From positions 1 to 64,000 of IMG/VR virus record IMGVR_UViG_3300046492_000163: a DNA stretch of 64,000 nt. The stretch is one strand, 5' to 3'. Shown here piece by piece: positions 8,201 to 46,200 of this stretch. Positions within the stretch are counted from its first letter, which is position 1. Each line of letters opens with the position of its first letter. The translations under genes and the position numbers were made by a program. A model generated the notes under the pieces. That model worked only from the letters and a program-made list of their open reading frames with translations, was not told the DNA's origin and did no database searches. This DNA is from a virus (taxonomy: Duplodnaviria; Heunggongvirae; Uroviricota; Caudoviricetes).

Positions 8201-11200
8201 ACAGGCTGGATTAATCTCTGGGGTGAAATCGACCCTAGACAATATCGGTGGTAGCGGAACTAACTTGGTTCCGGCTGAGTATTCTGTATTCGGTGCTAAC
8301 AAGCCTGAAATCGTGTATGGCGGGACTATCGCAACTACAGTAGCGGATGCAACTGCCCTGTACGGTTATGCCCTCAAGGTTACAACCAACAGCACAAACG
8401 CCACCGCAACTATCTACACTACCCCGCTGGAAACCTACGCTGCATTCAACATGGCGTGCAAGCCCGGTAAGTATATCCTGTCTTACTACGGCAAGACAGA
8501 TACTGCTGGTCACACTATTGCTATGTTCCTCCGGGGCCGTAATAGTGCAGACGTTGCTGTAAGTTCGACAGGCGCTCCACAAGATGCACTGACAACAGGC
8601 TGGGTTCGTTACTCGCAAGTTGTTGACCTGACCGTCGCTTCGTTTGCCGATAAAGATAAGATGTCTATCGGTATCCAGGTTAACCGTTCTGGTATTACTG
8701 GACGTGTGTTCTACCTCGACCGCATCATGCTTGAACCGATGCTTGGCGAGAACACTGCACCATCGCCATTCAGCGTTGGTAACAGCTTCGGTAAAGTTGA
8801 CGCTCTTGCGACTGCAACAACTGCCTTGACTACAAGCGTGAATCAACATGGCCTGGATATCACTAGCCAAGGCCAAGCAATCACAGCCGTTGAAGCAAGC
8901 ATTGGAAGCATGGGTGGTGCGGGAACTAACTTTGTTCCAGATACCTATAGCTGGCTTGGAACCGCAACACTTCCACAGACGGCGCTGAGTACAGCAACTT
9001 CGCTCACATCTGTTCCTGTTACAGGATCGGTGTCTGGGTATGGTTACAGGTACGTGAAGCCTAACGTGGCCGTGCCATGGTTCATGCTCTGCCCGAGCAA
9101 CAACGCAGCAGGCTGGAACATCCCTCTAGTTCCAGGTAAGTACCTGATGTCGTTCTACGCGAGCACTGACGCCCAAGGCGTTACAGATGGCTTGCAAGTT
9201 CGTGCAGCAATGTGGGATGGCAGCAGCAAGAGCCCAACAGACTTCACCCTGACAGCGACACGTACACGCTACACCGCTGTAATCACGATTCCGAACAGTA
9301 ATACCTACGGGTTTACGCTGTTCTTCGTGGGTGGTGTCGCAGGCAGCATTGCGTGGATTGACTCCCCAATGTTGGAGAAGCAGGTAGGTAATAACACTGC
9401 CCCTTCCCCGTTCGTAGCTGGAAGTAGTGCAGCCACTGTAGTAGCAACCGCTGCCGCAGTTACAGCCCTGACTGCAACAGTATCCCAAACAGGGACTACC
9501 GTTGATTCTCACACGAACGCTATCACCACGATTAACGCTACGGTGAATAATCTTGGGGGCAGTGGAACGAACATGGTCCCTGCTGAGTTTAGTGCGTTCA
9601 CTTCCAAAGTGCCGACGTTCAGTAAAGCTGCTCTGCTAACTGTAACAACTGAGGCAGATCCAGCGGCGTACTCGGGATATCTCCTGAGAGCAACTAACAC
9701 CACGGCAACTGTTGGGCACCTCTACTTGGGTTCTACAGCAACCGATTACAACATGCGTATCGCTCCGGACAAGAAATACATTATTTCGTTCTGGGCTAAA
9801 GGCGATGTTGCTCACAACGTTGGCATCCGTATTCGTTATCCGAACTCGGCAGGTACAGCGGTTGAGATTGGCTTGGCGTCAGTTGCGATTACAACAACAC
9901 TGGCCCGTTATAGCGCTGTACTCACAATGCCTGCGGCTGTAGTGGATCGAGGCGTAATCGTCCTCTATACACAGAACACCGCTGCTATCGGTGATACCTG
10001 GTTCGATGGCTTCATGGTTGAAGCTGCAATTGGCCCAGCAGTGACCCCAAGTGCGTTTGTACCTGGTAACTCGATGAGCCAAGTTATCGGGCAAGCTTCG
10101 GCAACCTCGGCACTTGACGCTCGCGTGGTAGTCACCGAAGGGAACATGATCAGCACTGGTAATGCGATCACTACCATCAACGCTAACATTGGCAAGATCG
10201 GTGCTGCGGGTTCTAACCTGCTGAACGATGACTATAGCTGGCTTACTTCAACTACGTTGCCAGCCAACGTAAGTGGAACTAGCTTGGCACGAGTTGGTGT
10301 AGCTGTTCCTGGCTCAGCTTCAGGCTTCGGTATGAAGATGACTACAGCCAGCACTAGCACTGGTCAGTTCATCATGCTCTGCCCAACGAACAACGCGGCT
10401 GGCTGGAACGTGGACTTGGAAGCCGGACTTTACTTGGTGTCCATGTATGTCCAAGGTTCAGTTGCGGGAACAATGCGTATCTCGATGTACGACGGTACAC
10501 ACCGTTATTCACCGATTATTGCATTCACCACAACTCGCACTCGCCTGACATTTGTTTGTGGAGCTACTGCATTCACCCGTGCAGCAGTAACGATCTACCC
10601 GAACATGGCGGGTCTGGCAGCAGGAGCTGAAATTACTGTTGACAGCGTAATGGTTGAGAAGACAGCGAACGATGTATCTAGCCAAGTTCCTTCGCCATTC
10701 GTTGCGGGCAACTCTGCACGGGCACTGTCGGCACTTGCCACAGTAACCAACGCAATGGGCACCACAGTTAGTCAGCATGGAACGGACATCAACACTGCGG
10801 CCAACAATATTCTGTCGTTGCAAACCTCAGTTGGTGGACAGACTCAAGAGAACTATGTTCTCGACCCAACTTTCAACGTTGATAAAGCGGGCCTGTCTAA
10901 CTCTTCTCAGGTAACTATTGTTCCTCAGACTGATGTAACAGTTCCATTAGGTTCATCGGTTCCGCGTCTTGCTCGTTGGGATGTTCCAACCTCGACAGGG
11001 AACACTTACTTGGGCTGGCAATGTGTAACTCTGCAACGCTCTCCTGCTAGCACGATCACCGCGTCTATGGCGCCTGGTGAAGTGTACGAAGTCTCTTGCG
11101 ATGTCTACATGGATGTTGCAGGGGCTGCTAGACAGCACGGGATCTGGTTCCAGTTCTACGATGCCGCAGGCGCCTCGATCAGCCATAACTGGGTAGTAGG

Positions 11201-14356: not shown

Positions 14357-15180
14357 TGGCCTGGTATGGAGTGGGCACTGTAACCGCAACAAACAACAGT
14401 GGAACTATTACGGGTGCAGGCACTGCCTTCATCTCTAATATTCGTGTAGGAGATGGTATTACCCTAGCGGGTAGCACTTCACTTCACGAAGTAACTAACA
14501 TCGTTAGTGAAACTCAACTAACGGTTTCTCCCGTATATGGTGGAACAACCGGTGCAAGTAAGACTTACGCCGTTGTACCAGTACAGGGGTATGTACAAGG
14601 CTTGGCGGATCAAGTTAAGAACTTGGTCCTCACGTTTGGCAACGTAGCCGCTAACGCTTCAGTTAATGCCTTAATGACGGTCACTGGTGCAGCGGACAGG
14701 CTTCCGTACTTCACTAGCGGCACAACTATGGCTACAACTGGCCTCACGCCTCTAGCGAGAACTTTGCTCGATGACGGATCAACTGGTTCAATGCGTACAA
14801 CTCTTGGATTGAAGACTGCGGCTGTATACGACGCGGTTGGTTCTGGAGGGATTATAGAACGGGGTGCTAACGCTAACGGCGAGTACACCAAGTTCGTAGA
14901 CGGCACTCTAATTTGTTGGTTCTATCAAACCATCGCAGCTAACTTGTCTTCAACAGGCTACGGAAGTGGTGCATATAACTCTTATAACTGGACCTTCCCT
15001 GTAGCTTATGCAGCGATTCCAGGATTAGCCGTACAAGCTGTAATTGCCGGTCGTATCATTTTCTGCGGACAGACAACTGGGATTACAAATAGTGCTGCTG
15101 GTTGTTTCTTCTGGGACGCATACGGCACTGCCCAGGCGCCGATGCTTACACGCTGGATGGCTATAGGGAGATGGGGATAA
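14356..15180 (+). CDS. side tail fibre protein, Stf-like paralogue 2
   Basis: ATG at 14356 overlaps stop of paralogue 1 (TAATG); GGGAGGTGG RBS; same N-terminal/middle architecture, divergent C-terminal ~80 aa. Confidence 0.8.
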   Translation: MAWYGVGTVTATNNSGTITGAGTAFISNIRVGDGITLAGSTSLHEVTNIVSETQLTVSPVYGGTTGASKTYAVVPVQGYVQGLADQVKNLVLTFGNVAANASVNALMTVTGAADRLPYFTSGTTMATTGLTPLARTLLDDGSTGSMRTTLGLKTAAVYDAVGSGGIIERGANANGEYTKFVDGTLICWFYQTIAANLSSTGYGSGAYNSYNWTFPVAYAAIPGLAVQAVIAGRIIFCGQTTGITNSAAGCFFWDAYGTAQAPMLTRWMAIGRWG

Positions 15181-16031
15181 TGTGGTATAACGCAGGGACA
15201 GTGACGGCGACACTTAATAACGCGACAGTAACAGGAGCGGGAACGCTATTCCTTGCAAACGTTCGTGTAGGAGATGGGATTACCATTGCTGGTAGCACTG
15301 TTATCCATGAAGTTACGAACGTTGCAAGTAACACGCAACTTACAATCTCCCCGGTTTATCCAGGCACAACTGGTGCAACTAAGGCTTATGCAGTCATCCC
15401 AGTACAGGGTTACGTTAAGGATCTAGCCGACCAGGCTAAGCAACTTATCCTAACTTTCAGTACCGTTGGATCGAGCGTCAGTGTTAACGCACTGGCTGGC
15501 ATCACTGGTGCAGCCGATAAGATCCCGTACTTCACTTCAGGGTCCACGATGTGGACAACCCCATTAACCCTGATGGCTCGCGGGCTATTAGACGATCCTG
15601 ATGCTGCCTCTATGCGAGCCACCCTCGGATTGAAGACTGCTGCTACTGCTACCCTAGTTGGGGATGTGTATGCCGGTGGGGTCATGGAGCGAGGATATAA
15701 CTCGAACGGTGAGTGGGTTAGATACGCTAACGGTAATATTCATCAGTGGGGGTACATCATCTTTGGGCAAGGACCGATACTGACAACGATCAGTGCCAAT
15801 ATCATCTTTCCCACGCTGTTCTACGACAACACCTATACCATCTCACTAACTCCGCAGGTTTCAAATAACGGCGCCGGTAGTCAAAGTTGCATAGGTGAAT
15901 ACTACGCTAATGGCGCGTACCTGAACAAAGCCACAGATTACTGTGGAGTTGGTATGTACACCTACCGCTACGCACAGACGTCTCAAGTTGTTCTTCAATG
16001 GCACGCTATTGGCCGTTGGCAAGCTAAATAA
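15180..16031 (+). CDS. side tail fibre protein, Stf-like paralogue 3
   Basis: ATG at 15180 overlaps stop of paralogue 2 (TAATG); GGGAGATGGGG RBS; MWYNAGTVTAT... same fold, divergent C-terminus (ORF-track start 15102 is an upstream extension). Confidence 0.8.
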   Translation: MWYNAGTVTATLNNATVTGAGTLFLANVRVGDGITIAGSTVIHEVTNVASNTQLTISPVYPGTTGATKAYAVIPVQGYVKDLADQAKQLILTFSTVGSSVSVNALAGITGAADKIPYFTSGSTMWTTPLTLMARGLLDDPDAASMRATLGLKTAATATLVGDVYAGGVMERGYNSNGEWVRYANGNIHQWGYIIFGQGPILTTISANIIFPTLFYDNTYTISLTPQVSNNGAGSQSCIGEYYANGAYLNKATDYCGVGMYTYRYAQTSQVVLQWHAIGRWQAK

Positions 16032-17670: not shown

Positions 17671-19677
17671 ATGAGTGCAATGGGACTTGTGACCACTCTT
17701 CCGAGTGCGATCCAACAGGCCAACTTGAGTCTTGACTTTGTTAACCAGCAATTCGCGGTTAACGGAACAAGTAAGACTTTCAATGATCTATTCACCTTCG
17801 CCCGTACTTCACAAGCCACTTACTTTGGGTCTGATGGCTTGGTTAAGTATGCCGCTGCAAACACTCCACGCTTCAACTACGACCCAGCAACCAAAGTTGG
17901 CAATGGGCTGCTGATCGAGGAATCAAGAACCAACTTGCTCAAGTATACAGAGCGGCTTGAATTCTTACCTTGGACACGTAGCGCTGCATCCATTGTACCT
18001 GGAGCTGCAATAGCTCCAGATGGTCGCTACTCAGCAGATAAACTGATCGAGAACACAGCCAACAGTGCTCACTATCAAGACCAGGTAATCGATGGCACAT
18101 ATACCACTGGGCAAGTCTTCTCTGGATCGATCTTCCTGAAGGCCGCTGAGCGTACTCGGGTTCGGATGAACTTCTACTACGCCATTGGCGCATCAGGCGG
18201 GAAACAGATTATTTTTGATCTATCCACTAAGACAATTGTTTCCCAAGACGCGGGCATCCTGTCCAGTGGCACAATCGATATGGGCAATGGGTGGGTCCGC
18301 TGTTGGTTTACTGCGGCTGTCGATACTCCCGCAGAGACTCGCTTACTGATCCGGACCTATCTGGTCAGCACCGGCTCGACATCCACTTATACCGGGGACG
18401 GCTTATCTGGTGTGTATGCCTGGGGTGCTCAAGTTGAGTTGGGTGCATTCCCAACAATGTATATCCCCTCTGAGGATACTTTCACTTCCCGCACATCCAT
18501 TGCAACTTACTACAACAATGCGGGAGTCTTGCAAACTGCCGCTAGCGGTGTAGGGAGAACTTCAGCCTTTGAGTATGACAGTAACGGTGTGTTGTGGCCT
18601 CTTGGCTTGCTGGCAGAGAATGCAAGTACAAACTTACTGCTGCGATCAGAAGTGTTCGATAACGCTTCATGGGCAAAGACCAACGTAACCGCAGTTGCCA
18701 ATGGCGCTATTGCACCAGACGGTACAATGTCAATGGACTTACTTCGGGCAACGGCGACGGTGGGCAACCATACAGCCACGCAGACAGTCGCTGCCACTGC
18801 ATCCACTACCTACACCGCGTCCGTCTTCATTAAAGCAGGTGGGTACACTTGGGGCCGAATCCGAATTGCAGACTCTGTGGGTTTCCTCAGAGATGCAGTT
18901 ATTGATCTAACCAACGGGGCTGTATTCAACCCATCAACTCTTACTAGTGTTGAGAATGTTGGGAATGGGATCTATCGCGTTAGCATAGTTGTGACGACCG
19001 CAGCCGCTGCAACTAACCTGAGTATGGGGGTGTGGGTGTACGACAACACTCGTGCATCCAGTTTCGCGGGAGATGGTGTCTCAGGCATCTATGCCTGGGG
19101 TGCTCAGATTGAAGCGGGTTCATTCTCCACTTCCTATATCCCTACCACCACTGCCGCAGTAACTCGGGCTGGGGATGTGACAGCCAGTGTAGTAGGTGTG
19201 CGAGCCGATGAAACAACATCGCTTGCCCTCGATACGGCCTGGTTCAACGCAGCCGCATTCACTGTGTACTCAGAGGCACAGGCTCAACTCCCACGCGATG
19301 TATTTGCACGGGTGTATGAGATGTCCGCTATCGCAGACAACCTGAACAGGTTCGGCGTGCTCTACAACCAGAACTTGTTCACCGGGAAGCTCCAGGTTGT
19401 TACCGCTGGAACGAACGTGGCTGACATCCTGTCACCGACCATCGAAGCCAATACGATCTTCAAGGCCGCAGTGGTATGTAAAGTCAATGACTATGCCGCC
19501 AGTTACAACGGAGCGACAACTACAACCGATACCGCTGGAGCATTGCCTACCGGAATGGAGCGGCTGTACATCGGTTATTACCGTGCAGGTGGCTCCGTGC
19601 TCAACGGGCATGTTCGGAAGATCCAGGTGTTCAACCGCAGACTAACGAACGCAGTATTGCAAATCCTTAGTTCGTAA
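17671..19677 (+). CDS. tail fibre / receptor-binding protein with internal tandem duplication
   Basis: 668 aa; two ~230-aa modules each starting TNLL..SE.F and ending GDG(L/V)SG(V/I)YAWGAQ(V/I)E.G.F.T.YIP. Confidence 0.7.
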   Translation: MSAMGLVTTLPSAIQQANLSLDFVNQQFAVNGTSKTFNDLFTFARTSQATYFGSDGLVKYAAANTPRFNYDPATKVGNGLLIEESRTNLLKYTERLEFLPWTRSAASIVPGAAIAPDGRYSADKLIENTANSAHYQDQVIDGTYTTGQVFSGSIFLKAAERTRVRMNFYYAIGASGGKQIIFDLSTKTIVSQDAGILSSGTIDMGNGWVRCWFTAAVDTPAETRLLIRTYLVSTGSTSTYTGDGLSGVYAWGAQVELGAFPTMYIPSEDTFTSRTSIATYYNNAGVLQTAASGVGRTSAFEYDSNGVLWPLGLLAENASTNLLLRSEVFDNASWAKTNVTAVANGAIAPDGTMSMDLLRATATVGNHTATQTVAATASTTYTASVFIKAGGYTWGRIRIADSVGFLRDAVIDLTNGAVFNPSTLTSVENVGNGIYRVSIVVTTAAAATNLSMGVWVYDNTRASSFAGDGVSGIYAWGAQIEAGSFSTSYIPTTTAAVTRAGDVTASVVGVRADETTSLALDTAWFNAAAFTVYSEAQAQLPRDVFARVYEMSAIADNLNRFGVLYNQNLFTGKLQVVTAGTNVADILSPTIEANTIFKAAVVCKVNDYAASYNGATTTTDTAGALPTGMERLYIGYYRAGGSVLNGHVRKIQVFNRRLTNAVLQILSS

Positions 19678-19715: not shown

Positions 19716-20138
19716 ATGAGTAATGAAAAAGACATAGACGTGCTCGCCCGAACACTTTGGGGAGAGGCACGAGGGGAAGGATTTAACGGCATGATCGCTG
19801 TTGGCTGGACGATCCGCAATCGGGTATTCGACGGTAAGTCGAACTCTTGGTGGGGAGAAGGCTACGCGGGAGTTTGCCAGAAGGCCTGGCAGTTTAGTTG
19901 TTGGAACAAGAGTGATCCGAACTCTGCCTACCTACGGGGAGAGAAAGCCATCCCGGCTGATCAATTCGCCCTGGCAAAGAAGGCTGCTGAGACGGTAATC
20001 GAAGGGTTGATCCCTGATCCGACCGGCAAGGCCACGCACTACTTCAGCACCTCAATGAAAACACCGCCTGCTTGGGCCGCTGTTGGCACTAAGACGGTAC
20101 AACTTGGAAGACACTTGTTCTACAAGGATGTCAAGTAA
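19716..20138 (+). CDS. endolysin, SleB-type cell wall hydrolase (Hydrolase_2-like)
   Basis: LARTLWGEARGEG..G.IAVGWTIRNRV pattern typical of SleB-family amidases used as lysins by Pseudomonas phages. Confidence 0.85.
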   Translation: MSNEKDIDVLARTLWGEARGEGFNGMIAVGWTIRNRVFDGKSNSWWGEGYAGVCQKAWQFSCWNKSDPNSAYLRGEKAIPADQFALAKKAAETVIEGLIPDPTGKATHYFSTSMKTPPAWAAVGTKTVQLGRHLFYKDVK

Positions 20139-25646: not shown

Positions 25647-26948
25647 ATGCAGTTCATGAAGAAAGTGGGTATCGGTCTGGTAGCAGGCGCCCTGGTTCTC
25701 GTTGGAACCTTTAACAGCGTCTTCGTATATAACGAAGCTGGCTATCAAACTCACATCCGTACAATCACGGGTGAAGAGAAAGTAATTACCGATGTTGGCT
25801 ATGCCACTAAATGGTTTGGTAAGGCCACGCCCTGGAAACAAGCACAGACTCTCCAGTTCTCCATCGTAGGCCCGAATGAAACGAGCCGTGAAGTTGATGA
25901 CGGTGTTGGGGTAGACAACTACAAGGTTGTCTTCTTGGGCAACGTAGACGGCGTTGTGGAGGCTTCTACACGGGTTCGTATGCCGGTCGGTGAGCAGTTC
26001 TTGCAGATCGCTCGTGAGTACCGTACCCCGGAGAACTTCCTGCAACTTGCAGTAGTTCCAGCAGTAAAAGAAACCCTACAAACCACCGCCTCTTTGATGA
26101 CTGCGGATGACTTCTTCGCAGGCGGTCGTTCTGAGTTTGGTAACAACTTCGACGATCAACTTCGCAACGGCCAGTACGCTGTAAAGCGTAAGGAAGTTCA
26201 GAAGGCAGTTGTCCAGGAACGTCAGGAAGGCGATAAAACTGTCTCGGGTGCTGGTAATGATGGTGAACAGAAGCGGACTGAGTTCATCACTGAGAAAGAA
26301 GTTGATAACAAGGGCCAGGAAATCCGCAAGGCTCAGCAGTTTGTTAGTTTGGGTGCCCAAGTTGTAGAAGCCCGCATCACCAACATCATCCCGAACGAAC
26401 AGTTCCGTGGTCGGATGGTGAAAGTTCAAACTGCACAAGCGGACCTGGCTGTAGCCCGTGCTGATCGACTGAAAGAAGAAGAAGCAAAACTTCTGGCAAT
26501 CGCTAAGGGTCAGCGTGAAGTTGAACAGAAGCGTCAAGAAACTTTGCGTATGCAGGTAGAACAAACTACCAACGCAGAAACTTCCAAACTTCTGGCCCTG
26601 ACTGAGGCGTCCCAAGCAGAAGAGTCTGCGAAGATCAGCAAGCGTACCGCACTGGAACTGCTGGACAAGGCGAAGACCGATGCTCAAGCAAAGAAAACTT
26701 CTGCTGACGCAGAGGCTTACGCACTCCGCGTAGTGCTGGAGGCTGACGGTGCATTGGACAAGAAGCTGGCAACTATGGAACGCATGTCGCATTACATGTC
26801 GGAAGCCATCGCTCGTGCTCCAGTGTCGCAGTTTTCGATGGGTGGTGGTGGCTCTGGAAGTCGTGCAAGTCAAGTTGAAGACTTCATGGGTTTGATGAAC
26901 GCACAGAACATGAAAACCCTGTCGCTGGATATGAACATCAAGAAGTAA
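25647..26948 (+). CDS. SPFH/band-7 (flotillin/YqiK-like) membrane protein with long coiled-coil C-terminus
   Basis: N-terminal TM, then SPFH-like core, then ~200 aa E/A/K/Q-rich coiled coil; resembles E. coli YqiK architecture. Confidence 0.55.
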   Translation: MQFMKKVGIGLVAGALVLVGTFNSVFVYNEAGYQTHIRTITGEEKVITDVGYATKWFGKATPWKQAQTLQFSIVGPNETSREVDDGVGVDNYKVVFLGNVDGVVEASTRVRMPVGEQFLQIAREYRTPENFLQLAVVPAVKETLQTTASLMTADDFFAGGRSEFGNNFDDQLRNGQYAVKRKEVQKAVVQERQEGDKTVSGAGNDGEQKRTEFITEKEVDNKGQEIRKAQQFVSLGAQVVEARITNIIPNEQFRGRMVKVQTAQADLAVARADRLKEEEAKLLAIAKGQREVEQKRQETLRMQVEQTTNAETSKLLALTEASQAEESAKISKRTALELLDKAKTDAQAKKTSADAEAYALRVVLEADGALDKKLATMERMSHYMSEAIARAPVSQFSMGGGGSGSRASQVEDFMGLMNAQNMKTLSLDMNIKK

Positions 26949-27052
26949 GTGTTAGAGAAAAGAGTCTTGTAACAGGAAGTGCAAGACTTTTTAAAGCAAA
27001 AGCGTGTTAACAGTGTTTGAGAAAATTCGAGATTAGTGTAAGAGAGAACGAT

Positions 27053-27475
27053 ATGGGCAAGTATGCAAGTAAGACTGAAACTAACGTACCACTGTTTAAA
27101 TTATCCGGTGAAGTTCGTTATAAACATCTGCGACACTATGTGATTAATTACGACACTCACGCAGAAGGAATTTATAACCAAGGTGGGATAACTATCGCGT
27201 ATCAGCGACTCACCGATGTGGAACTTGAGCTGATCTTGGGATCGACTGAAGAACCGGCAATTCGGATTGGCTTCGCGGGCTGTAGCTTGTCGGACAATTA
27301 CGACCGGAAATTTGGTCGCATGATTGCCGAACAGCGGTTGGCAACGTCGCGAGACGTGATCGTTGGGGAGAAATACATCGAGCGGATTTTGAAGGCAATC
27401 GAACCTGGAGAAGTGGCCGATGTGATCTACGGACCACTGGCGGCACAGGGAATTCGATTTGAGGCTTGTGCGTAG
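27053..27475 (+). CDS. hypothetical protein
   Basis: start MGKYASK with AAGAGAGAA RBS. Confidence 0.45.
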   Translation: MGKYASKTETNVPLFKLSGEVRYKHLRHYVINYDTHAEGIYNQGGITIAYQRLTDVELELILGSTEEPAIRIGFAGCSLSDNYDRKFGRMIAEQRLATSRDVIVGEKYIERILKAIEPGEVADVIYGPLAAQGIRFEACA

Positions 27476-28165: not shown

Positions 28166-28654
28166 ATGGCACGCGACAAGAAAACGGTTAAAAATCGTAC
28201 AGAGACGATCATCACCGATCACAAGACTGGGGAGGTTTTGAGCCAAGAATCGACCGTCACTTACAAAGTCCCACAAGAGCCGGACTTCGTGAAGGTGTAC
28301 ATCGAGTCCTTCACGGACATGGGACTGAGGGATCACCATGTGACCCTACTCTTCCAACTCGTTCGCAAAATGAACTACGAGAACGTGATTGCTCTCACAC
28401 CGGGCGCTCGGGTCAGGATCGGGGAAAAGCTGAAGATCCAGCAACAAACCTTCCGCAATTACCTGGCTGTTCTACTGGAGGCAGATATATTCCGGCGAAT
28501 AGGTCACGGAGAGTTCATGGTGAACCCGACCTACATTGCGAAGGCGAGGTTTGAGGAAAACGTAGCTCGACAGAAGATTTATTACAAAATCAAGCAAGTA
28601 AAGACTAAGAAAGGCCGAACTCCGAAGCCCAAGGAAGTTGCTCCAGATACTTGA
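28166..28654 (+). CDS. winged-HTH DNA-binding protein (candidate plasmid-type Rep or regulator)
   Basis: 162 aa; QQTFRNYLAVLLEADIFRRIGHGEFMVNP looks like recognition helix + wing; preceded by 690-bp repeat-rich non-coding DNA; convergent with par operon. Confidence 0.5.
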   Translation: MARDKKTVKNRTETIITDHKTGEVLSQESTVTYKVPQEPDFVKVYIESFTDMGLRDHHVTLLFQLVRKMNYENVIALTPGARVRIGEKLKIQQQTFRNYLAVLLEADIFRRIGHGEFMVNPTYIAKARFEENVARQKIYYKIKQVKTKKGRTPKPKEVAPDT

Positions 28655-29465: not shown

Positions 29466-30224
29466 TCACTGGCTACTCACCAGCTTGAGTCCACGGGTGC
29501 CTTCTTTGACACCCAGCGACTTGCCTGCAACCTTCGGCCCGACCTTCGCCCGTTTCTTGACTTTTTCCTTGGGTTTCCGCAACTCAGCAGGTACTGGGTT
29601 CGGTTCTTTGATGCCAACTTCTTGCAGGATGAACTCAACCAGGTTGTCGATTTCCTCCACGCCTTGGTGGTTGGGATCGTATTCGTCCAAGGATTCGCCC
29701 CAGCCCATGCAAGTCTTAAAGGCAGTTGCTCGATGGACAATGCCCGCAACTTTCCCCACGCGGGAAAGCTCCATGACGGTTTCGGTTGTGATCCGTTCGC
29801 GTTTATCAACGATGTTCATCAGGAACACGGAGCGAGCGTGGTGTTCGGTCAGCGTGCCGAAGGTGTCGGCTGTACCTTCCAAATCCAATGGGCTTGGCTG
29901 GCACGGCACAACTACCAGATCGGCAATTTCATAAAGCTTGGACAGTTCTTCGTGCTTCCAGCCGGGGGTGTCGATCACGACACAATCCACGCCCAACTCC
30001 CGCAATTCATCGAGCCTTGGGCGAAGTTGTTCGAACGTAACTTTCAGCAGTTCGGGGAACTGAGATTCACGGCGTTCCCACCAGCGTTTGATGCCGCCTC
30101 GGTGGTGGTCAACGTCAATTAGAACGGTGTAGTAGCCACGGTTATCCAGGTTGACGCCAACCTGGGCGGTGATGGTGGACTTGCCTACACCCCCCTTTTC
30201 GTTGGCAACAGCGAAAATTTTCAT
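29466..30224 (-). CDS. parA: ParA/Soj-family partition ATPase (type Ib size)
   Basis: MKIFAVANEKGGVGKST deviant Walker A; GAGGAA RBS before ATG at 30224; ORF-track N-terminal extension to 30305 rejected. Confidence 0.9.
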   Translation of the reverse strand: MKIFAVANEKGGVGKSTITAQVGVNLDNRGYYTVLIDVDHHRGGIKRWWERRESQFPELLKVTFEQLRPRLDELRELGVDCVVIDTPGWKHEELSKLYEIADLVVVPCQPSPLDLEGTADTFGTLTEHHARSVFLMNIVDKRERITTETVMELSRVGKVAGIVHRATAFKTCMGWGESLDEYDPNHQGVEEIDNLVEFILQEVGIKEPNPVPAELRKPKEKVKKRAKVGPKVAGKSLGVKEGTRGLKLVSSQ

Positions 30225-30299
30225 TGGGTGTTCCTCTATATAGGTGCTCACCTGGGTGAGCGGTTCCTTGCTTAAGTGATTGCTTGCGCGAATCCCCGC

Positions 30300-31060
30300 A
30301 TCCATGCGTGATTGGGCGAACGCTTACCTGTGTAAACGAACGGGTATGTCCCTAAGTCCGCAGTTCCCTGAGTAACTGAGTAAAGACGGAAGCGTGCAAT
30401 TACGCATTCACTTACGTCCGCAACCGGGCGAGTAATGGCTCACGGGCGTGGTTCCCCACTTCTTCCCTTGGGCGTCCACCTGTGTGAGCACGCACTCGGT
30501 TGCTCAATTACCTAAGTCAGTAGCCAGTTCCCCACGTACCTCAATGAGGAAGTCACCACCTACCTAGGCAAACACCTGGGCAAGTACATACCTGCTTGGG
30601 TGTTTACTCAGACGCATGCGTCCTTACCTGGGGATTTAACTACTCGGGTGGGTAATTGTCAACTTACTCGCACAATTAATGTAATACGCGCCTACCCACG
30701 TACCCAACCAAGCGAGTCCCTAGGGAGGTAGGTAGGTGCATGGTTGGTTGAGTAGTTGAGTGTGGAGGTAGGTACTCAGACAACCACCTAGTTACCCAAA
30801 TAGGTAAGTGAATGGCTACTGGCGTACCTATGGAATTACCTGAATACGCAAGGGATTACGCACCCACACACGTACCCGGTTAGGTAAGCACACAAGTGAT
30901 TACGTGGTTCCTTGCGTGCTGGAGTATGCGGTGACGTACTGGTGTACTGGAGTACCCAAATGAGTAATTACCCAAGTGAGTAGCTGGGTAGGTGGGTAAG
31001 TACCCAAAAGGGTAGATGGGTAAATGGGTAGATACCCAGTGGTATATACAACCTGTTTGA
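30300..31060. repeat. repeat-rich non-coding region upstream of parA (degenerate GGTAAG/TACCCA and ATTAC motifs); candidate centromere
   Basis: no credible ORF; >8 ATTAC(C/G) copies and many GGTA/TACC half-palindromes; perfect TGGGTA-NN-TACCCA units at 31000..31040. Confidence 0.45.
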
Positions 31061-31449
31061 TTTCCCGCTTGGCAGGGTCTGCCACCAGGTGTTGAGGCAG
31101 CAGCCGCAGCCCGAAGTTCTGTGAGCCTCTGTGAGGCCTTATAGGAGGTCGGCAACCCATTAGTAGCCTCGCCCTGGCAACGTCGCCTGGCTGGGCTATA
31201 GTGAAGGCGGGTAAGGTGTTGCCGGACGAATTTTCCCCATAACCCGGCATTCACGCAGATCAGGACGGGGTTGCCTCTGGCGTGCTGAAAGATGCGCGTA
31301 CAGCGAGTACGGACAGACACGGCCTTACCTGAAGCCCTGCCATGACCTGGTGGGGCTTTTTATTGTCCTACAATAATCCACTGTACATCTACACAGTGGT
31401 GGCTATACTGAGTACGTCAACCTCGGGCAGACCGTCAATCTTCCCATTT

Positions 31450-31480
31450 AGCCGCCCCTCACCAGGGCGGCTTTCTTTTG
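31450..31480 (+). terminator. intrinsic terminator
   Basis: GCCGCCC-ctcacca-GGGCGGC + TTTCTTTT. Confidence 0.55.
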
Positions 31481-31488
31481 TCCAATGC

Positions 31489-31580
31489 CGCTACAGGGGG
31501 CCTGGCTCCCAGAATGCCCGTACAGGGGGCTAGCCCCCAGTTTCCTCATAGGGGGGTATGCACTACACGGGGGTGGGTTG
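31489..31580. repeat. ACAGGGGG-core repeat cluster (4 copies, irregular spacing) incl. perfect palindrome GGGGGCTAGCCCCC
   Basis: tacagggggc x2, cataggggggt, acacgggggtg. Confidence 0.4.
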
Positions 31581-31688
31581 CGGTGGTGCCGCCTGTCAGG
31601 TAGGATCGCCGTGCGTGTCCGAGACTGTAGCTTCGACAGGGGTGTACCTGCTCCATCCCGTGGGTACATCAGAACAGAAGCATTGATC

Positions 31689-31720
31689 AGCCGCTTAGCC
31701 CACCTAAGCGGCTTTTCTTT
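31689..31720 (+). terminator. intrinsic terminator
   Basis: AGCCGCTTAG-cccacc-TAAGCGGCT + TTTCTTT. Confidence 0.55.
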
Positions 31721-31857
31721 GCCTGGTGGAAAGGCATCCTGGTGTTGACCTGGTGTTGACCTGGTGTTGGTCCGACCGATGTGGTAACGTGCCTGGGCTT
31801 TCCTTGTGTTGTGTTGTAATGGCAGGGGTGGGGAACTCGTAAACCCCCACCCATTGA

Positions 31858-31890
31858 AAAGGCCGTCCTCTTGGACGGCCTTTTCTTTGT
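31858..31890 (+). terminator. intrinsic terminator
   Basis: GGCCGTCC-tctt-GGACGGCC + TTTTCTTTG. Confidence 0.55.
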
Positions 31891-31923
31891 CCGGTAGAAA
31901 GTCCTGGTCCGACCTGGTTAAAC

Positions 31924-32295
31924 TTGGATAAACCTGGTGAGGGAACAGACATGCCCTACTATGACGGTCGTTGGCATCTATATAGCGAGCAAGAACGCCG
32001 CGAATATGGCGAGCGGAAGCGTGCCGAGTTGAGTAAGAAGTGGCACGCCAAGTGGATCAGTAGACAGGGCCTGAAAGATCGGCTCTGGACTGATAAGGCG
32101 ATCCAGGATTTTCTAGGTAAGCCTCGGGCAGCAGGCGCGATTAAAGCTTGGCTACGCAAGGATGTATTGCGGGCAGAGCGTGGCCCTGAATTCCAGACCT
32201 GGATGGAGAAACGCCGTAGATGGTTGGCGGCACGCGGCAAGCTACCCGCACCATATCCCCTGCCGGACAACGTGTTCCCCATTCGCCCGATGTGA
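31924..32295 (+). CDS. hypothetical basic protein (Arg/Lys/Trp-rich)
   Basis: 123 aa; lies between the two ACAGGGGG repeat clusters; alternative start at MPYYDG. Confidence 0.45.
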   Translation: MDKPGEGTDMPYYDGRWHLYSEQERREYGERKRAELSKKWHAKWISRQGLKDRLWTDKAIQDFLGKPRAAGAIKAWLRKDVLRAERGPEFQTWMEKRRRWLAARGKLPAPYPLPDNVFPIRPM

Positions 32296-32349
32296 TCCAG
32301 CAGAAAGAGAAAAGCCAGCTTTCGCTGGCTTCTCGCTTATCTTTCGCTC

Positions 32350-32733
32350 TTATGCAGCGGCAGACACTTGCTTCCAGCTCAGAACTTCGTCTTTGCCGTA
32401 CTTGCCGATCCACTCTTGAATCTTCTTCTTCAAGATGTTCGCCGCTCGCACGACTTCCCCAGTGTGTGGGTTTTTGTACTCAGTAAAGACTGTGTTCGGT
32501 CCTGCCTTCTTCGGCTTCTTCTCTTTGACCTCTACCACTGGCGGTACATAGTTCGGATCAAGGATCGTGTTCACATCTACCAAGGACATCCCGTATTTGG
32601 CTAGGAGTTCTCGCTGCTCAGCTTCGAAGGCCTGGAGCTTCTGTAGCTGGGGGTTATTCTCAAGCTCTTGAAGGCGGCGCTGTACGGCTTCGAACTCTGC
32701 TCTTGCTTCGTGTAGCTGCTTTACCAATGACAT
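32350..32733 (-). CDS. MvaT/MvaU-family H-NS-like nucleoid-associated protein (xenogeneic silencer homologue)
   Basis: 127 aa; MSL...coiled coil...ILDP...Lys-rich linker...EYKNPHTGEVV...LSW matches P. aeruginosa MvaT (LLDPDA, QYKNPHTGEVIETKGG...ESW), recalled from memory. Confidence 0.85.
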   Translation of the reverse strand: MSLVKQLHEARAEFEAVQRRLQELENNPQLQKLQAFEAEQRELLAKYGMSLVDVNTILDPNYVPPVVEVKEKKPKKAGPNTVFTEYKNPHTGEVVRAANILKKKIQEWIGKYGKDEVLSWKQVSAAA

Positions 32734-32892
32734 TCCGTTGCGTATCCGTGTTTGTTGTTAGGAGGCCGCACTATATCGCCCTGGATGAGACAACGGAAGA
32801 CCTGGTAGAGAGAACCCGATAAGTGAGAGAGAAAATTCCTCGATGCTCGACCTGGTTCTATCTTGATTGACCTGGATAAGCCTGGGTGTTCC

Positions 32893-32985
32893 CACTACAG
32901 GGGGGTGCTGGATTTCCCCACACGGGGGTACTGGATTTGCCCACAGGGGGGTCGCCAATGTCGCCACAGGGGGGTGGCCCCCTCG
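32893..32985. repeat. iteron array: 4 direct repeats, exact 23-bp phasing, core CCACAGGGGGGT
   Basis: GGGGGT ends at 32906, 32929, 32952, 32975; first two units also share (G/A)CTGGATTT. Confidence 0.6.
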
Positions 32986-33181
32986 GGAGTTCTCGCCCTG
33001 GTTGATCCAGGTAAGTCGTCCAGGTTGAGCCAGGTCCCCGCCCAAAATCCCCCGGCATCGAGCATCGATCCCCTGTCTGAACAGCGGACAGGCAGAAGCC
33101 CCCGGCTGGCCCGTAGGCCCCGGATTTGGCGCTATATAGAAGGGAATCGACGGCTGAAAAGAATTTGAAGAAGCGGCTTTA

Positions 33182-33198
33182 CTGTACGATTCATACAG
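33182..33198. promoter_or_regulatory. operator-like palindrome CTGTA-N7-TACAG (copy 1 of 4)
   Basis: CTGTACGATTCATACAG 48 nt upstream of gene 33246. Confidence 0.4.
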
Positions 33199-33245
33199 CC
33201 TAGGCTTGCCCCTATCGAAACGAGAAAGCCCCTAGGGGTGTAGGA

Positions 33246-34248: not shown

Positions 34249-34539
34249 ATGGTAACTCTACGCAATGAATTGTTGGTGCAAGTTCGGGAGTTTATCCGCC
34301 AGCCTCTAGCGTGGCCGGGATGCTATCCCAAAGTTTTGTTAATGGCAGACGGCGAAGTAATGTGTGCCGTATGTGCCAAAGCGAACTATCGGCTTATCAG
34401 TCAGGCCACGCGGTCTAATGATCGGCGTGATAGCTGGTGTGTTGCTGGTGTAGACTTGTTCCTTGAGGGCTCGCCCCTGTCGTGTGCCCACTGCAATAAG
34501 CCAATCGAATCAGCCTATGGAGAGCCGGAAAATGAGTAA
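34249..34539 (+). CDS. hypothetical Cys-rich protein (CAVCAKANY...CAHCNKP zinc-ribbon-like)
   Basis: 96 aa with two CxxC pairs. Confidence 0.5.
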   Translation: MVTLRNELLVQVREFIRQPLAWPGCYPKVLLMADGEVMCAVCAKANYRLISQATRSNDRRDSWCVAGVDLFLEGSPLSCAHCNKPIESAYGEPENE

Positions 34540-35595: not shown

Positions 35596-36177
35596 ATGCA
35601 GACTACACAAACTTACGCCCACTATGTCGCGGTTGTTTCCGCCCGTGGTGTTACGCCTGTAACAGAAGTTCAGTTTAACGCTCTGCAAACTCTGCCGCGT
35701 GTGGCTGATGTAAACATGCCCCGTACGCTAAACTACGCTATCGGCGTAGCGTTGGAAGCGGGCGATAATACCGGGGCTGCTAGTTTGATCAGACAGGGCG
35801 ACGAATATACGCAAGAATGTTGGCAGATGTTTACAGAAGAGGGGGACCATCTCCCGGCAGAAGGCTTGCATGCGAATATAGAACAATGGGCAAAGTTTGG
35901 GCGTGACGAAGTACGCCCTTTAAATATTGCTTACATGTTGGACTTTGACGGTAATTCGCCAAAGGATCAAACTTGCTTTTCAATCGGCAAACAAAACTTT
36001 TTCTTTAATGGGGATAGTATTTGCCAGTGGGATAATGAACGGGAGTGGGATTTTCTCTGCTTCCACTTCTTGTCTAATCCAACTTTGAAACAAATCCTAG
36101 TTATAACTATCGGCTGCTTTGATGTTGAAAGTTTGGCGGATATGTTGGCAGGCGACGAAGTAAAACAAGACGGATAG
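35596..36177 (+). CDS. hypothetical protein
   Basis: start MQTTQTY with GAGGG RBS. Confidence 0.5.
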   Translation: MQTTQTYAHYVAVVSARGVTPVTEVQFNALQTLPRVADVNMPRTLNYAIGVALEAGDNTGAASLIRQGDEYTQECWQMFTEEGDHLPAEGLHANIEQWAKFGRDEVRPLNIAYMLDFDGNSPKDQTCFSIGKQNFFFNGDSICQWDNEREWDFLCFHFLSNPTLKQILVITIGCFDVESLADMLAGDEVKQDG

Positions 36178-37422: not shown

Positions 37423-38064
37423 ATGGCACTAGTTACCCTTCCGTTTTCCGGCTTCTATCAGTCGCTGCATGATGGCGAGATAGACCGCGAAATTGCCTCG
37501 ATGTTCTCAGACCGGGATACCGGCTGTGATCGTAACCAAGGCTTAGAAAGTGCGCTTTTCGATAAGTGCGACTTTCGCCAAGTTCATCAGGCTTATACAC
37601 AAGCCTATGCGGAAAAGTTCGCACAAGAATTCAAAGTTAAAGGGCTCAAGTTTGAAAGTATGTCCAGCCCGAAAGAATATAACTTTGAAACAGACCGCGT
37701 ATTTGCACTAGTGTCTAAAAAGGAATTGACGCGCATTTATCGTAACTTAGATAAAAGCGTTTTTGCTGATGTCTTAAAAGACAAGTTCACAAGTTGCGAC
37801 GGTTTTAGTTCGTTCTACTCTAACGATGTGAAAGATTGGGGGCCAATCGCAAGTTGGGACCATAACCAATACGGCGCTATTCTGTTAGCGTTGGCTATTG
37901 AAGAAAGTACCAACGGCGAGTTTGACCAATGGGCGGAATATAACTTGTGCGAATCCTTTAGCGGTAACGGCGATTTAACCAGATGGATTGAAGCCGCTAC
38001 ACCTAACGTTGAACGCCTGTATAAAATTCACGACTACCTTGAAACACGTTCAGGGCGGGTTTAA
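37423..38064 (+). CDS. hypothetical protein
   Basis: 213 aa. Confidence 0.5.
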   Translation: MALVTLPFSGFYQSLHDGEIDREIASMFSDRDTGCDRNQGLESALFDKCDFRQVHQAYTQAYAEKFAQEFKVKGLKFESMSSPKEYNFETDRVFALVSKKELTRIYRNLDKSVFADVLKDKFTSCDGFSSFYSNDVKDWGPIASWDHNQYGAILLALAIEESTNGEFDQWAEYNLCESFSGNGDLTRWIEAATPNVERLYKIHDYLETRSGRV

Positions 38065-42148: not shown

Positions 42149-42740
42149 CTAGCAGCTAGGCCCCCAACTTAACTAATTACATATCTATTAATATGTGGCG
42201 TAGACGCCACGGGTAATTATCGCTAAGACGTACCGTCTTTCTTGTAATAGAGGGGGCAGGGGCCAGAAAGCCCCCTAATTAAAAAGCGTTCAATGCCGCG
42301 TAATACGCGGGGTGTAGCGTTATTCCGTGACGTGAACGTCACATATATACACCAGTCTATTGCGTAGCAATAAGTTAGTTACACTGCCCCATATACACTA
42401 CCCCATATAACTCCCTGCATAGTATAACTTCCGACTGTTAGTCGGGTATATGTCTCTATATATGTATTGAACTAACTTAGTTCAAATCCCCGTATTGCTT
42501 GCAATACAGTTAATTAACTATGACATATAGCCTATATCTTGGCGTAGCTAATCGGGACGATTGGGGTTAAGCCAAGCCTTTTTTCTATGGATTAAATTAT
42601 TTATATAGTTCCACGTGGAACAATTCGAACAGACACGCTAGTGTCAGAGTAAACCTAGACAGATAGCCCCGAGTCAGGGAGAATCTAGTGGAATCTGGCA
42701 CAGCCCAGGAATAGAGTCAGCTAATCGATCCTGGTGGATC
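42149..42740. repeat. AT-rich non-coding region densely packed with short perfect palindromes (>=12)
   Basis: GTGGCGTAGACGCCAC, AAGACGTACCGTCTT, CCGCGTAATACGCGG, GTGACGTGAACGTCAC, TATTGCGTAGCAATA, CCGACTGTTAGTCGG, TTGAACTAACTTAGTTCAA, GTATTGCTTGCAATAC, GTTAATTAAC, TTCCACGTGGAA, GACACGCTAGTGTC, GATCCTGGTGGATC. Confidence 0.5.
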
Positions 42741-45264: not shown

Positions 45265-46200
45265 ATGATCGATTTTCAGGCTGGTGTAGATTCTTTCTGC
45301 GAATACCTGCGACTTGAACGTCAAGCGTCTGTTCACACTATCCAAGCCCGTCGTCGTGACCTGGCTAAAGTGATTGCCTACTGCAAGGCCTGCCATATCC
45401 CTGACTGGTCCTCCTTTGAGGCTGCGAACATGCGGGGCTTGGTCGCAAAGATGAACGAGAATGGTCAAGAGGCAAACAGCGTCAAGCGTCTGATGTCTTC
45501 CGTCCGTAGATTGTTCCGCCACCTCAAGTTGCAGAACGTGATCGCTGATGGTCATAACCCGCTTCATAAAGTGGACACACCAAAGGGTCACAAACGGCTT
45601 CCTCGGCACCTGCTCTCCTATGAGTCTGGCGACATGCTCGATGCTGAAGTGGAAGACACTTTCATTGCCCGTCGTGACCATGCCATTGTTGAACTTTTCT
45701 ACTCTTCTGGCCTTCGCCTCACTGAACTAGTGAACCTCGACATGGAGCACGTAGACTTCAACGACAAGTTGGTAACGGTAGTTGGCAAGGGCAATAAGAC
45801 CCGGATCGTTCCAGTGGGTCGCAAGGCTCTGGAGTCGCTTCAGGAATGGTTCAAGCACCGCGACCTGGTGGAAGCAAAGGGCAAGGCGATCTTCATCAGC
45901 CAGCAGGGCCAACGCCTCACCGGGCGGGCTGTCCGCATGCGGGTAGAAGCCATGGGCAAGAGCAAGCTGGGCCGTCACCTGTACCCGCACATGCTCCGTC
46001 ATTCCTTTGCCACAGATATGTTGTCTTCGTGCCACGACTTGCGTGTTGTACAGGAGCTGCTCGGTCACGCAGACATCAAGACCACGCAGATTTACACGCA
46101 CTTGGATTACGGCCATCTTGCAGGGGTGTACAACAATGCTCACCCACGGGCTAAACGCATTACAACTGATTCCGATATTGGAAAGAGCCATGAACTATAA
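45265..46200 (+). CDS. XerC/XerD-like tyrosine recombinase
   Basis: 311 aa; C-terminus HMLRHSFATDMLSSCHDLRVVQELLGHADIKTTQIYTHLDYGHLAGVYNNAHPRAKR near-identical in pattern to XerC; GGGAG RBS. Confidence 0.85.
   Translation: MIDFQAGVDSFCEYLRLERQASVHTIQARRRDLAKVIAYCKACHIPDWSSFEAANMRGLVAKMNENGQEANSVKRLMSSVRRLFRHLKLQNVIADGHNPLHKVDTPKGHKRLPRHLLSYESGDMLDAEVEDTFIARRDHAIVELFYSSGLRLTELVNLDMEHVDFNDKLVTVVGKGNKTRIVPVGRKALESLQEWFKHRDLVEAKGKAIFISQQGQRLTGRAVRMRVEAMGKSKLGRHLYPHMLRHSFATDMLSSCHDLRVVQELLGHADIKTTQIYTHLDYGHLAGVYNNAHPRAKRITTDSDIGKSHEL

Follow-up and report, generated by a model that had tools for sequence, protein, structure and literature searches.

The mvaT-like gene described here is carried by a tailed virus, the IMG/VR record IMGVR_UViG_3300046492_000163 (Caudoviricetes). 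The window, which means the whole stretch of DNA analyzed, covers positions 1 to 64,000 of this record. The coding sequence is located on the minus strand at 32350-32733, with an ATG start codon at 32733 and a stop codon at 32350-32352, and encodes a protein of 127 amino acids (MSLVKQLHEARAEFEAVQRRLQELENNPQLQKLQAFEAEQRELLAKYGMSLVDVNTILDPNYVPPVVEVKEKKPKKAGPNTVFTEYKNPHTGEVVRAANILKKKIQEWIGKYGKDEVLSWKQVSAAA). It was delimited from the open reading frame (ORF) list and the sequence, and its product scores above the cut-offs of two family profiles. The reading frame is intact and full length, and the protein begins with the family-typical 'MS'. An earlier note, made from the letters alone, had assigned the protein to the MvaT/MvaU family of H-NS-like proteins and had named an EYKNPHTGEVV signature, an ILDP linker and an N-terminal coiled coil. 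EYKNPHTGEVV is indeed found at residues 85-95 and ILDP at residues 57-60, and the N-terminus is helical in an AlphaFold2 model. The NCBIfam model NF041859 (silencer_MvaTU, "histone-like nucleoid-structuring protein, MvaT/MvaU family") matches the protein end to end (residues 1-122 to profile positions 1-120 of 120; E=3.1e-22), although the margin is small (79.0 bits against a cut-off of 75). Pfam PF22055 MvaT_DBD matches residues 86-120 (E=8.5e-08, 32.5 bits against a gathering score of 27). In the PDB, the sole significant solved structure is the C-terminal domain of MvaT (2mxe, E=6e-06), onto which the predicted fold superposes in Foldseek. Because of these four scores, the similarity to the MvaT family is far above chance, and the window protein is a genuine MvaT/MvaU-family member by hidden Markov model cut-offs and fold. 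In contrast, the statement of the earlier note that it matches MvaT closely does not hold: the overall identity to MvaT is about 34-36%, and the score on the MvaT-specific NCBIfam 'exception' model NF041860 is 79.2 bits, below the cut-off of 180. On this score, the possibility that the protein is an MvaT orthologue was rejected. The protein also matches PHROG 34034, which is labeled 'unknown function'.

The AlphaFold2 model was built from a 68-sequence alignment and has a mean predicted local distance difference test (pLDDT) value of 84. Residues 1-60 (32554-32733, minus strand) form the N-terminal oligomerization domain, which in the model and the alignment consists of two long helices and one short helix (residues 3-25, 28-47 and 51-58; pLDDT 91-96). 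This domain aligns with that of MvaT without gaps at 37% identity. Oligomerization of MvaT requires F36 and M44, and mutation of these residues leaves MvaT as a dimer only (PMC7039000). Of this second contact site, the window protein keeps F36, which is invariant family-wide, and has leucine in place of M44. Residues 61-83 (32485-32553, minus strand) are a flexible basic linker, which contains KEKKPKK and is modeled without secondary structure (pLDDT 54-75). Residues 84-123 (32365-32484, minus strand) are the C-terminal MvaT-type DNA-binding domain, as assigned by PF22055, Foldseek and the predicted elements, namely strands 84-87 and 94-97, a loop, and helices 103-112 and 114-119. In Foldseek, this part of the model superposes on 2mxe with a target TM (template modeling) score of 0.86, a root-mean-square deviation of 1.3 Å and 38% identity; in the alignment to MvaT the domain is 44% identical. 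The charges are -3 for the N-terminal domain and +6 for the linker and C-terminal domain, compared with -3 and +9 in MvaT. A truncated antagonist of the H-NST type was rejected as an identity for the protein, because a complete and conserved C-terminal domain is present (PF22055, Foldseek).

Ding et al. solved the structure of the C-terminal domain of MvaT bound to DNA (PMC4466236). In this structure, the so-called AT-pincer, which is composed of R80 and loop 2 (KGGNH, with G99-N100), enters the minor groove, and K81, K83, K97, K102, K105 and K108 form a lysine network (PMC4466236). The R80A, N100A, K105A and K108A mutations each abolish cupA repression, and R80A and K108A weaken the binding more than 10-fold; K83A abolishes the repression too, apparently through unfolding of the domain (PMC4466236). 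We determined the residue correspondence from gap-free alignments, one made with HMMER against 2mxe and others made with MAFFT using 14 and 156 family members. In the C-terminal region, the number of a residue in the window protein is that of the MvaT residue plus one. The arm is changed: the linker does not have the RKxRxxK sequence that supplies R80 in MvaT, and R80, K81 and K83 correspond to T81, V82 and T84, respectively. Loop 2 is remodeled: residues 97-102 (AANILK; 32428-32445, minus strand) stand where MvaT has TKGGNH, which contains the G99-N100 half of the AT-pincer, so that K97 is replaced by A98, G98-G99 by N99-I100, N100 by L101 and H101 by K102. Beyond the loop, K102 is retained as K103, while K105 and K108 are replaced by Q106 and I109. 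Thus, the AT-pincer is absent, none of the four function-critical residues (R80, N100, K105 and K108) is kept, and a single lysine of the network (K102) remains out of six. New basic residues (R96, K102-K104, K111 and K114) flank the remodeled loop. Because all of the residues found critical by mutagenesis are substituted, canonical silencing of AT-rich DNA cannot simply be assumed for this protein. As a swap pair for chimeras, we name the head segments RAANILKKKIQEWI replacing ETKGGNHKTLKEWK, beside the RKxRxxK arm.

The altered head is shared by other proteins. An exhaustive search of 1.84 billion cluster representatives with a profile gave 272 family members at E≤1e-3, and the entries at the top of this list are variants that share the head type of the window protein. 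Its features are the loop x-A-x-N-[ILV]-[LM], a hydrophobic residue following the conserved tryptophan, and a GP(N/H)TxW(Y) arm replacing RKxRxxK. Proteins with this head are P0026-P0031, P0033, P0048, P0060, P0064 and P0175-P0181. The clade to which the window protein (P0001) belongs has at least 10 members and the signature VVRAANILKK..EWI. The set of 156 aligned full-length sequences over-represents variants, since these were the source of the query profile; all four critical positions are retained in 81 of these sequences and none in nine, one of which is the window protein. VVRAANILK is invariant in P0001, P0002 and P0003, which are only 46-50% identical overall; because of this invariance, the variant head is not a product of random decay. 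In the tighter clade, the mean identity of the C-terminal domain (0.61) is higher than that of the N-terminal domain (0.54). Because of this conservation and the preserved charge pattern, selection seems to act on the variant C-terminal domain, which remains plausible as a DNA-binding domain, probably with different contacts. P0027 (194 amino acids) has tandem C-terminal domains, the first near-canonical (YTNPHNGDRIVYVGGVNKQLEEWKEKWG) and the second with the variant head (YINPHTSQVVRASNILKKELQQWIGQYG); from this arrangement, the variant domain may be a working module as opposed to a decoy. In a scan of species-representative genomes, the RAANIL head was found in none of the best 80 of 289 family loci. 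Among the same 80 loci, a second non-canonical head, EAKSTLHK, was found in three Pseudomonas loci. These loci (L033, L067 and L089, from Pseudomonas isolates; head NPHTGEVVEAKSTLHKTVRAWI) are each near the end of the retrieved DNA, and the head is shared by P0208, a protein of Pseudomonas sp. S37 named 'DNA binding protein'.

All members of the variant clade whose contexts we read are on mobile elements. P0002 and P0175 (loci L002 and L020) are encoded by contigs of about 65 kb, one of them viral in IMG/VR, among many small ORFs; in both, a ParA gene is located 1.4-1.5 kb downstream on the same strand, like the arrangement in the window. P0178 is encoded in the cultured Pseudomonas sp. BF-R-21, after genes for an integrase, an anti-restriction-like protein and a BrxR-type winged-helix protein and before an Arc-like gene. 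P0064, a more distant variant, is near genes for an integrase, a Prim-Pol protein and an SNF2 helicase. These elements have essentially no further genes in common with the window. Since they are otherwise unrelated, the mvaT-like gene seems to move as a cassette between unrelated elements. Relatives that are slightly more remote and have the canonical head occur on mobile elements as well: one on a plasmid-like Rep3 contig of 96 kb, another on an island that carries UmuDC and defense genes. In viral collections the family is sparse: only 13 viral contigs of IMG/VR have any relative (the canonical KGGNH loop is present in 11 of them), two of 50,697 GenBank phage records match, both being contigs from fecal metagenomes, and a structural search of BFVD with the AlphaFold2 model gave no significant viral match. 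Homologues of MvaT on plasmids and islands are already well known, and a copy on a phage or phage-plasmid is an uncommon but natural extension. To our knowledge, the conserved replacement of the DNA-reading head, restricted to mobile elements among the contexts read, is new.

The mvaT-like gene is a single transcription unit. It is convergent with ORF123 (31924-32295, plus strand), and a GC-rich hairpin at 32305-32338, which was detected both as a terminator-like site and as inverted repeat I18, separates the two genes. The terminator-like site runs on the minus strand from 32334 to 32309, has 11 pairs and a T-rich tail, and directly follows the stop codon of the mvaT-like gene. The hairpin is likely a terminator and may be bidirectional, also ending ORF123. 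Upstream, an intergenic region of 512 bp (32734-33245; 57% GC) is shared with a divergent 9-kb block of small plus-strand genes that starts at 33246. A scan of the minus strand revealed no consensus sigma-70 promoter for the mvaT-like gene, and its Shine-Dalgarno sequence is weak. The 512-bp region contains 11-bp-periodic repeats TTGACCTGG at 32848-32890. This 11-bp family and a 23-bp family (ACAGGGGGGT) are present on both sides of the convergent pair (31484-31937 and 32848-32982), and these repeats may be operators or iterons. The 11-bp-periodic repeat TTGACCTGGTG occurs at 31734-31768, 31900-31937 and 32848-32890; the 23-bp tandem repeat ACAGGGGGGTnCTGGATTTnCCC has three copies at 32897-32975 and related copies at 31484-31557.

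The replication and partition genes of the element are nearby. A ParA-type partition ATPase is encoded at 29466-30305 on the minus strand (Pfam MipZ, CbiA and ParA above cut-offs; PHROG 164, E=3.6e-28) and a RepL-family replication protein at 28166-28654 on the plus strand (PF05732, 43.8 bits against a cut-off of 20.3). On the same strand as parA, the mvaT-like gene is located about 2 kb upstream of it; the distance to repL is about 4 kb. Upstream of parA, the region 30680-31015 is a repeat array with TACCCAAATAGGTAA-type motifs about 80 bp apart and the direct repeat families D1, D3, D7 and D8; it is a plausible candidate for a partition centromere or an iteron region. TACCCAAATAGGTAA itself is found at 30793, 30873, 30953 and 31001 within the repeat-dense non-coding DNA of 30330-31030, with related copies of 28-32 nucleotides nearby. 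Between parA and ORF123, about 1.6 kb has no convincing ORF.

The carrier has the gene content of a phage. By PHROG matches, the window encodes a tape measure protein (157-2715), a central tail fiber J homologue of 2428 amino acids (5295-12581, plus strand), a tail fiber and tail proteins (15102-16031 and 17671-19677), an endolysin (19716-20138), ribonucleotide reductase subunits (55682-58563, minus strand), a thymidylate synthase (58967-59941, minus strand) and an exonuclease (63006-63950, minus strand), which bears out the suggestion of the earlier note that the gene is phage-borne. The same protein, identical in sequence, is encoded on a contig of about 106.8 kb in both the Logan and the JGI assemblies. 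Thus, phage structural and lysis genes and the genes for ParA and RepL are together on one contig, which is the gene combination of a phage-plasmid. A XerC/D-like tyrosine recombinase of 311 amino acids is encoded at 45265-46200 on the plus strand (Pfam Phage_integrase, 150 bits, with a SAM-like N-terminal domain; PHROG integrase families) and may serve as an integrase or resolve plasmid dimers. The carrier is a siphovirus of about 107 kb and, from these genes, probably a phage-plasmid of a Pseudomonas-like host. The earlier note had considered a strategy of lysogeny or plasmid carriage. Plasmid carriage is plausible in view of ParA, RepL and the Xer-like recombinase. Among about 30 neighboring ORFs searched with Pfam and PHROG, no repressor, anti-repressor or ParB was recognized, and most are ORFans. 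A search with the neighboring ORF177 gave one unrelated prophage only, which has no mvaT-like gene. Megablast with 30-36 kb of the window gave nothing among plasmids and, among phages, only a 96-bp match to a Burkholderia phage; with 1-25 kb, it gave no match among phages.

The host is probably a Pseudomonas-like gammaproteobacterium, and in this respect the earlier note had been reasonable. Homologues of MvaT are found on 282 plasmids in PLSDB, of which 261 are in Pseudomonas; the best matches of the J protein are Pseudomonas phages; and one clade member is in Pseudomonas sp. BF-R-21. When GTDB was scanned with one genome per species, the best 80 of 289 loci were mostly from Pseudomonas, followed by Marinobacter, Halomonas/Vreelandella, Hahella and relatives. 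The GC content of the window (50.8%) is low for Pseudomonas. However, it is compatible with such a host, because a strain of Pseudomonas plecoglossicida yielded the distantly related phage vB_PpS_SYP (43.4% GC). When a phage of low GC content enters a high-GC host, its DNA is of the kind that MvaT/MvaU targets. The window is compositionally flat, with local GC minima (36-39% in 200-bp windows) only at 26851-27200, 35901-36150, 37601-37850 and 42351-42650; these four are natural first places to seek binding of an H-NS-family protein. The earlier note had singled out a palindrome-dense stretch at 42.1-42.9 kb as a region that might be silenced. This stretch overlaps one of the four minima, but the description as palindrome-dense was not supported: it has no inverted repeats of 12 nucleotides or more (8-nucleotide seed), and nothing was found that links it to the mvaT-like protein. 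Short direct repeats are present at 42.0-43.4 kb.

Chromosomal 'short' silencers of the H-NS family are MvaT and MvaU in P. aeruginosa and TurA and TurB in P. putida, whereas the window protein is encoded by a phage. It resembles MvaT in length (127 compared with 124 amino acids), in its gap-free N-terminal domain with F36, in the LDP hinge followed by a basic linker, and in the conserved C-terminal core YKNPHTGEV...W...G...V..W, in keeping with the superposition on 2MXE; it differs in the pincer and lysine residues described above. The plasmid-borne Sfh (R27/pSf-R27) and Pmr (pCAR1) have a 'stealth' or backup silencer role (PMC7074111, PMC4138198). Like Pmr and Sfh, the window protein is an H-NS-family paralogue encoded on a large element of lower GC content, close to maintenance genes. 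Its identity to MvaT of about 35%, compared with 58% for Pmr (PMC4138198), and its remodeled head set it apart; the canonical head is retained in the plasmid-borne relatives that we read, such as P0004. In addition, the carrier here is a tailed phage. Phages that carry a homologue of the silencer family of their host are known from H-NS of EPV1, Lsr2-like proteins of mycobacteriophages and CgpS of prophage CGP3 (PMC7074111). The window protein is comparable with these proteins, although they belong to the H-NS and Lsr2 families and not to the MvaT family. A 2020 review of horizontally acquired silencer homologues includes no phage MvaT homologue (PMC7074111), and a "phage-related MvaT-like" gene in an island of P. 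fluorescens Pf-5 was noted in 2009 (PMC2647930). LUZ24 Mip binds MvaT (PMC4635203). A possible relief of the host silencing of phage DNA would be a feature in common with Mip, T7 gp5.5, H-NST and Ler, and so would the underlying situation, in which the phage of a high-GC host is confronted with MvaT. Mip and T7 gp5.5 are unrelated small proteins, and Ler retains an H-NS-type DNA-binding motif. H-NST has no DNA-binding domain, unlike the window protein with its complete and conserved C-terminal domain.

Among described phages, vB_PpS_SYP of Pseudomonas is the nearest (107,173 bp, 43.4% GC, host P. plecoglossicida). Its tail module is syntenic with that of the window at 33-53% amino-acid identity, and genes for ribonucleotide reductase, ThyA and an exonuclease are present in both. 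The carrier resembles vB_PpS_SYP and the SSU5/pHCM2-type phage-plasmids in size (about 107 kb), in the siphovirus tail module around a lambda-J-type fiber, and in a gene set of ribonucleotide reductase, thymidylate synthase, exonuclease, DNA polymerase A, primase-helicase and nicotinamide adenine dinucleotide (NAD) salvage; like phage-plasmids, it has ParA and a Rep protein. In contrast, the window from about 20 to 54 kb is almost without counterpart in vB_PpS_SYP, and neither the mvaT-like gene nor parA, repL or the recombinase has a homologue that could be detected in that phage up to its last 7 kb.

We propose, with a confidence somewhat short of even, that the mvaT-like gene encodes an element-borne H-NS-family paralogue whose DNA-reading head is altered and which is akin to Pmr (pCAR1) and Sfh (R27). 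In this proposal, the acidic two-helix N-terminal domain would form dimers and higher oligomers via F36 and the leucine at position 44, and might co-polymerize with host MvaT/MvaU. The basic linker and the C-terminal domain would bind DNA via the remodeled head, in which R96, N99, L101 and K102-K104 would take over from the R80/G99-N100 AT-pincer and the lysine network. The protein would then coat the element's own DNA, whose GC content of 51% would make it appear foreign to a host with about 60% GC or more. This coating could silence lytic or costly genes during carriage, and could spare the host pool of MvaT/MvaU from titration by the element. Family membership, fold, the substitutions, the conserved variant head and the setting on mobile elements are observed here; the DNA binding, the oligomerization, the sign of the regulatory effect and the plasmid carriage in this proposal are inferred. 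The proposal includes a functional C-terminal domain because of the conservation, the charge pattern and the invariant VVRAANILK. A maintenance role would fit because the gene has its own terminator, because parA and repL are close, and because the order of the mvaT-like gene followed by parA recurs in unrelated elements of about 65 kb. The precedent is strong because of the MvaT homologues on the 282 PLSDB plasmids, in addition to Pmr and Sfh. Several points weigh against the proposal. Substitution of all four critical contacts and five of the six lysines may mean that binding to the AT-rich minor groove is weakened or changed. Promoters of hns and mvaT are AT-rich and autoregulated; the region upstream of the mvaT-like gene is GC-rich (57%). 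The carrier has its own DNA polymerase A and primase-helicase and no recognized repressor, so that temperate or plasmid carriage is only plausible. Moreover, the N-terminal identity to MvaT (37%) is well below the 50-58% identity of the hetero-oligomerizing pairs among Pmr, TurA and TurB (PMC4138198).

The same substitutions can be read in the opposite direction. The protein might be a counter-silencer, that is, a dominant-negative mimic of MvaT that enters the filaments of host MvaT/MvaU and frees the incoming 51%-GC phage genome. This idea, which we regard as rather unlikely, would account for the loss of the four critical contacts and of five network lysines together with the retention of the oligomerization residues. 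Proteins that lack all four contacts are few (nine) in the set of 156, which comes largely from a search whose profile favored the clade. Where clade members could be placed, they are in phages, in a prophage-like island or in a similar integrative element, and one of them is beside anti-restriction-like and BrxR-like genes. The GC content of the phage is far below that of a Pseudomonas genome, so that its DNA is a natural target of MvaT, and MvaT itself is targeted by Pseudomonas phages (PMC4635203). However, known dominant-negative proteins such as H-NST simply have no DNA-binding domain, whereas no part of the clade proteins is better conserved than the C-terminal domain, which is also positively charged and has an intact fold, and so presumably still binds something, most simply DNA. 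The low N-terminal identity to MvaT counts against mixed filaments here too, and the proximity of parA and repL suggests a function in carriage and not in early lytic growth.

If the domain binds DNA, its specificity may have changed. A dedicated, Ler-like regulator that switches maintenance or early genes locally or serves them as an architectural factor, in place of general silencing, seems to us quite unlikely, although possible sites are at hand: the TTGACCTGG and ACAGGGGGGT repeats flank the convergent pair and fill the 512-bp divergent promoter region, and the par/rep control region is another candidate. That loop 2 and the N-terminal arm are conserved yet different, and that the linkage to parA is conserved in two unrelated types of element, would also suit such a regulator. 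However, these repeats are GC-rich, unlike any known target of the MvaT family, and the variant protein is also encoded by elements that share no other genes with the window and presumably have no such repeats. We consider it very improbable that the gene is a decaying or neutral passenger that was copied from an mvaT-like gene of a host and now has no function. The divergence from MvaT, the marginal score on NF041859 (79.0 against 75 bits), the weak Shine-Dalgarno sequence and the lack of a consensus promoter could be taken as signs of decay, but the frame is intact and full length with the 'MS' start and its own terminator, the AlphaFold2 model is confident, and the head is invariant at 46-50% overall identity in a clade whose known contexts are on different elements. 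A further idea, bolder than a backup silencer and held only tentatively, concerns the VVRAANILKK..EWI clade as a whole. The clade may be an MvaT type specialized for mobile elements with a rebuilt minor-groove head, serving either as a full-length anti-silencer derived from a silencer, which would co-polymerize with host MvaT/MvaU, impair the binding of the filaments and let phages and islands evade xenogeneic silencing, or as a new mode of DNA reading. In the latter case, for example, a hydrophobic Ile/Leu wedge and an asparagine might replace the Arg/Gly-Asn pincer and confer a different target preference; our reserve applies to these two alternatives jointly.

Xenogeneic silencing by MvaT/MvaU controls prophages, virulence genes and the fitness cost of plasmids in Pseudomonas. 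Plasmids are known to bring their own copy of MvaT (Pmr) and phages to bring inhibitors (Mip). A full-length MvaT relative in which all critical contacts are swapped is therefore a natural experiment on how this fold reads DNA and on the ways in which mobile elements modulate or evade silencing by the host. If the protein is a true co-polymerizing antagonist, it would represent a new route to counter-silencing, namely mimicry with the same outcome as Mip. If it binds DNA, it would represent a second recognition mode within the MvaT family. If it is merely a divergent backup silencer, it would extend the Pmr/Sfh paradigm to phage-plasmids and no more. The functional consequence is directly testable with published MvaT assays.

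Several other features of the carrier and its relatives were observed. The J homologue is unusually long; only its first approximately 1000 residues resemble those of Pseudomonas phages, and its C-terminal 1400 residues match other tail PHROGs or PHROGs of unknown function. A Band_7 (SPFH) protein of 433 amino acids is encoded at 25647-26948 on the plus strand, close to RepL and ParA (PHROG 11908, unknown function, E=2.6e-60); a band 7 protein is annotated in vB_PpS_SYP as well. Beyond the window end, the contig (L108) encodes a DNA polymerase A (881 amino acids), a Toprim/DnaB primase-helicase, a nicotinate phosphoribosyltransferase (NAPRTase) and a phosphoribosyl pyrophosphate (PRPP) synthetase, the last two being auxiliary genes of NAD salvage, as in vB_PpS_SYP. 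A 96-amino-acid ORF at 34249-34539 on the plus strand has paired CxxC motifs (CAVCAK...CAHCNK) and matches PHROG 18452 'DNA ligase' (E=1e-22); judged from its size and motifs, it is more likely a small zinc-ribbon protein than a ligase. The window has no tRNA genes, and no Rfam family matches it at the gathering threshold. On the plus strand, the region 31174-31720 contains promoter-like sites at 31174-31202 and 31382-31409 and terminator-like hairpins at 31331-59, 31450-72 and 31689-713; it may encode small RNAs, perhaps for replication or partition control, with no match in Rfam. In pR31014-IMP, an IncP-2-type megaplasmid of P. aeruginosa (L105/L106), an MvaT/MvaU-family gene is located at the record end, beside the first gene ('hypothetical'), and csrA is about 0.6 kb from it. 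More than 20 related megaplasmids have an MvaT/MvaU-family gene at the same record position.

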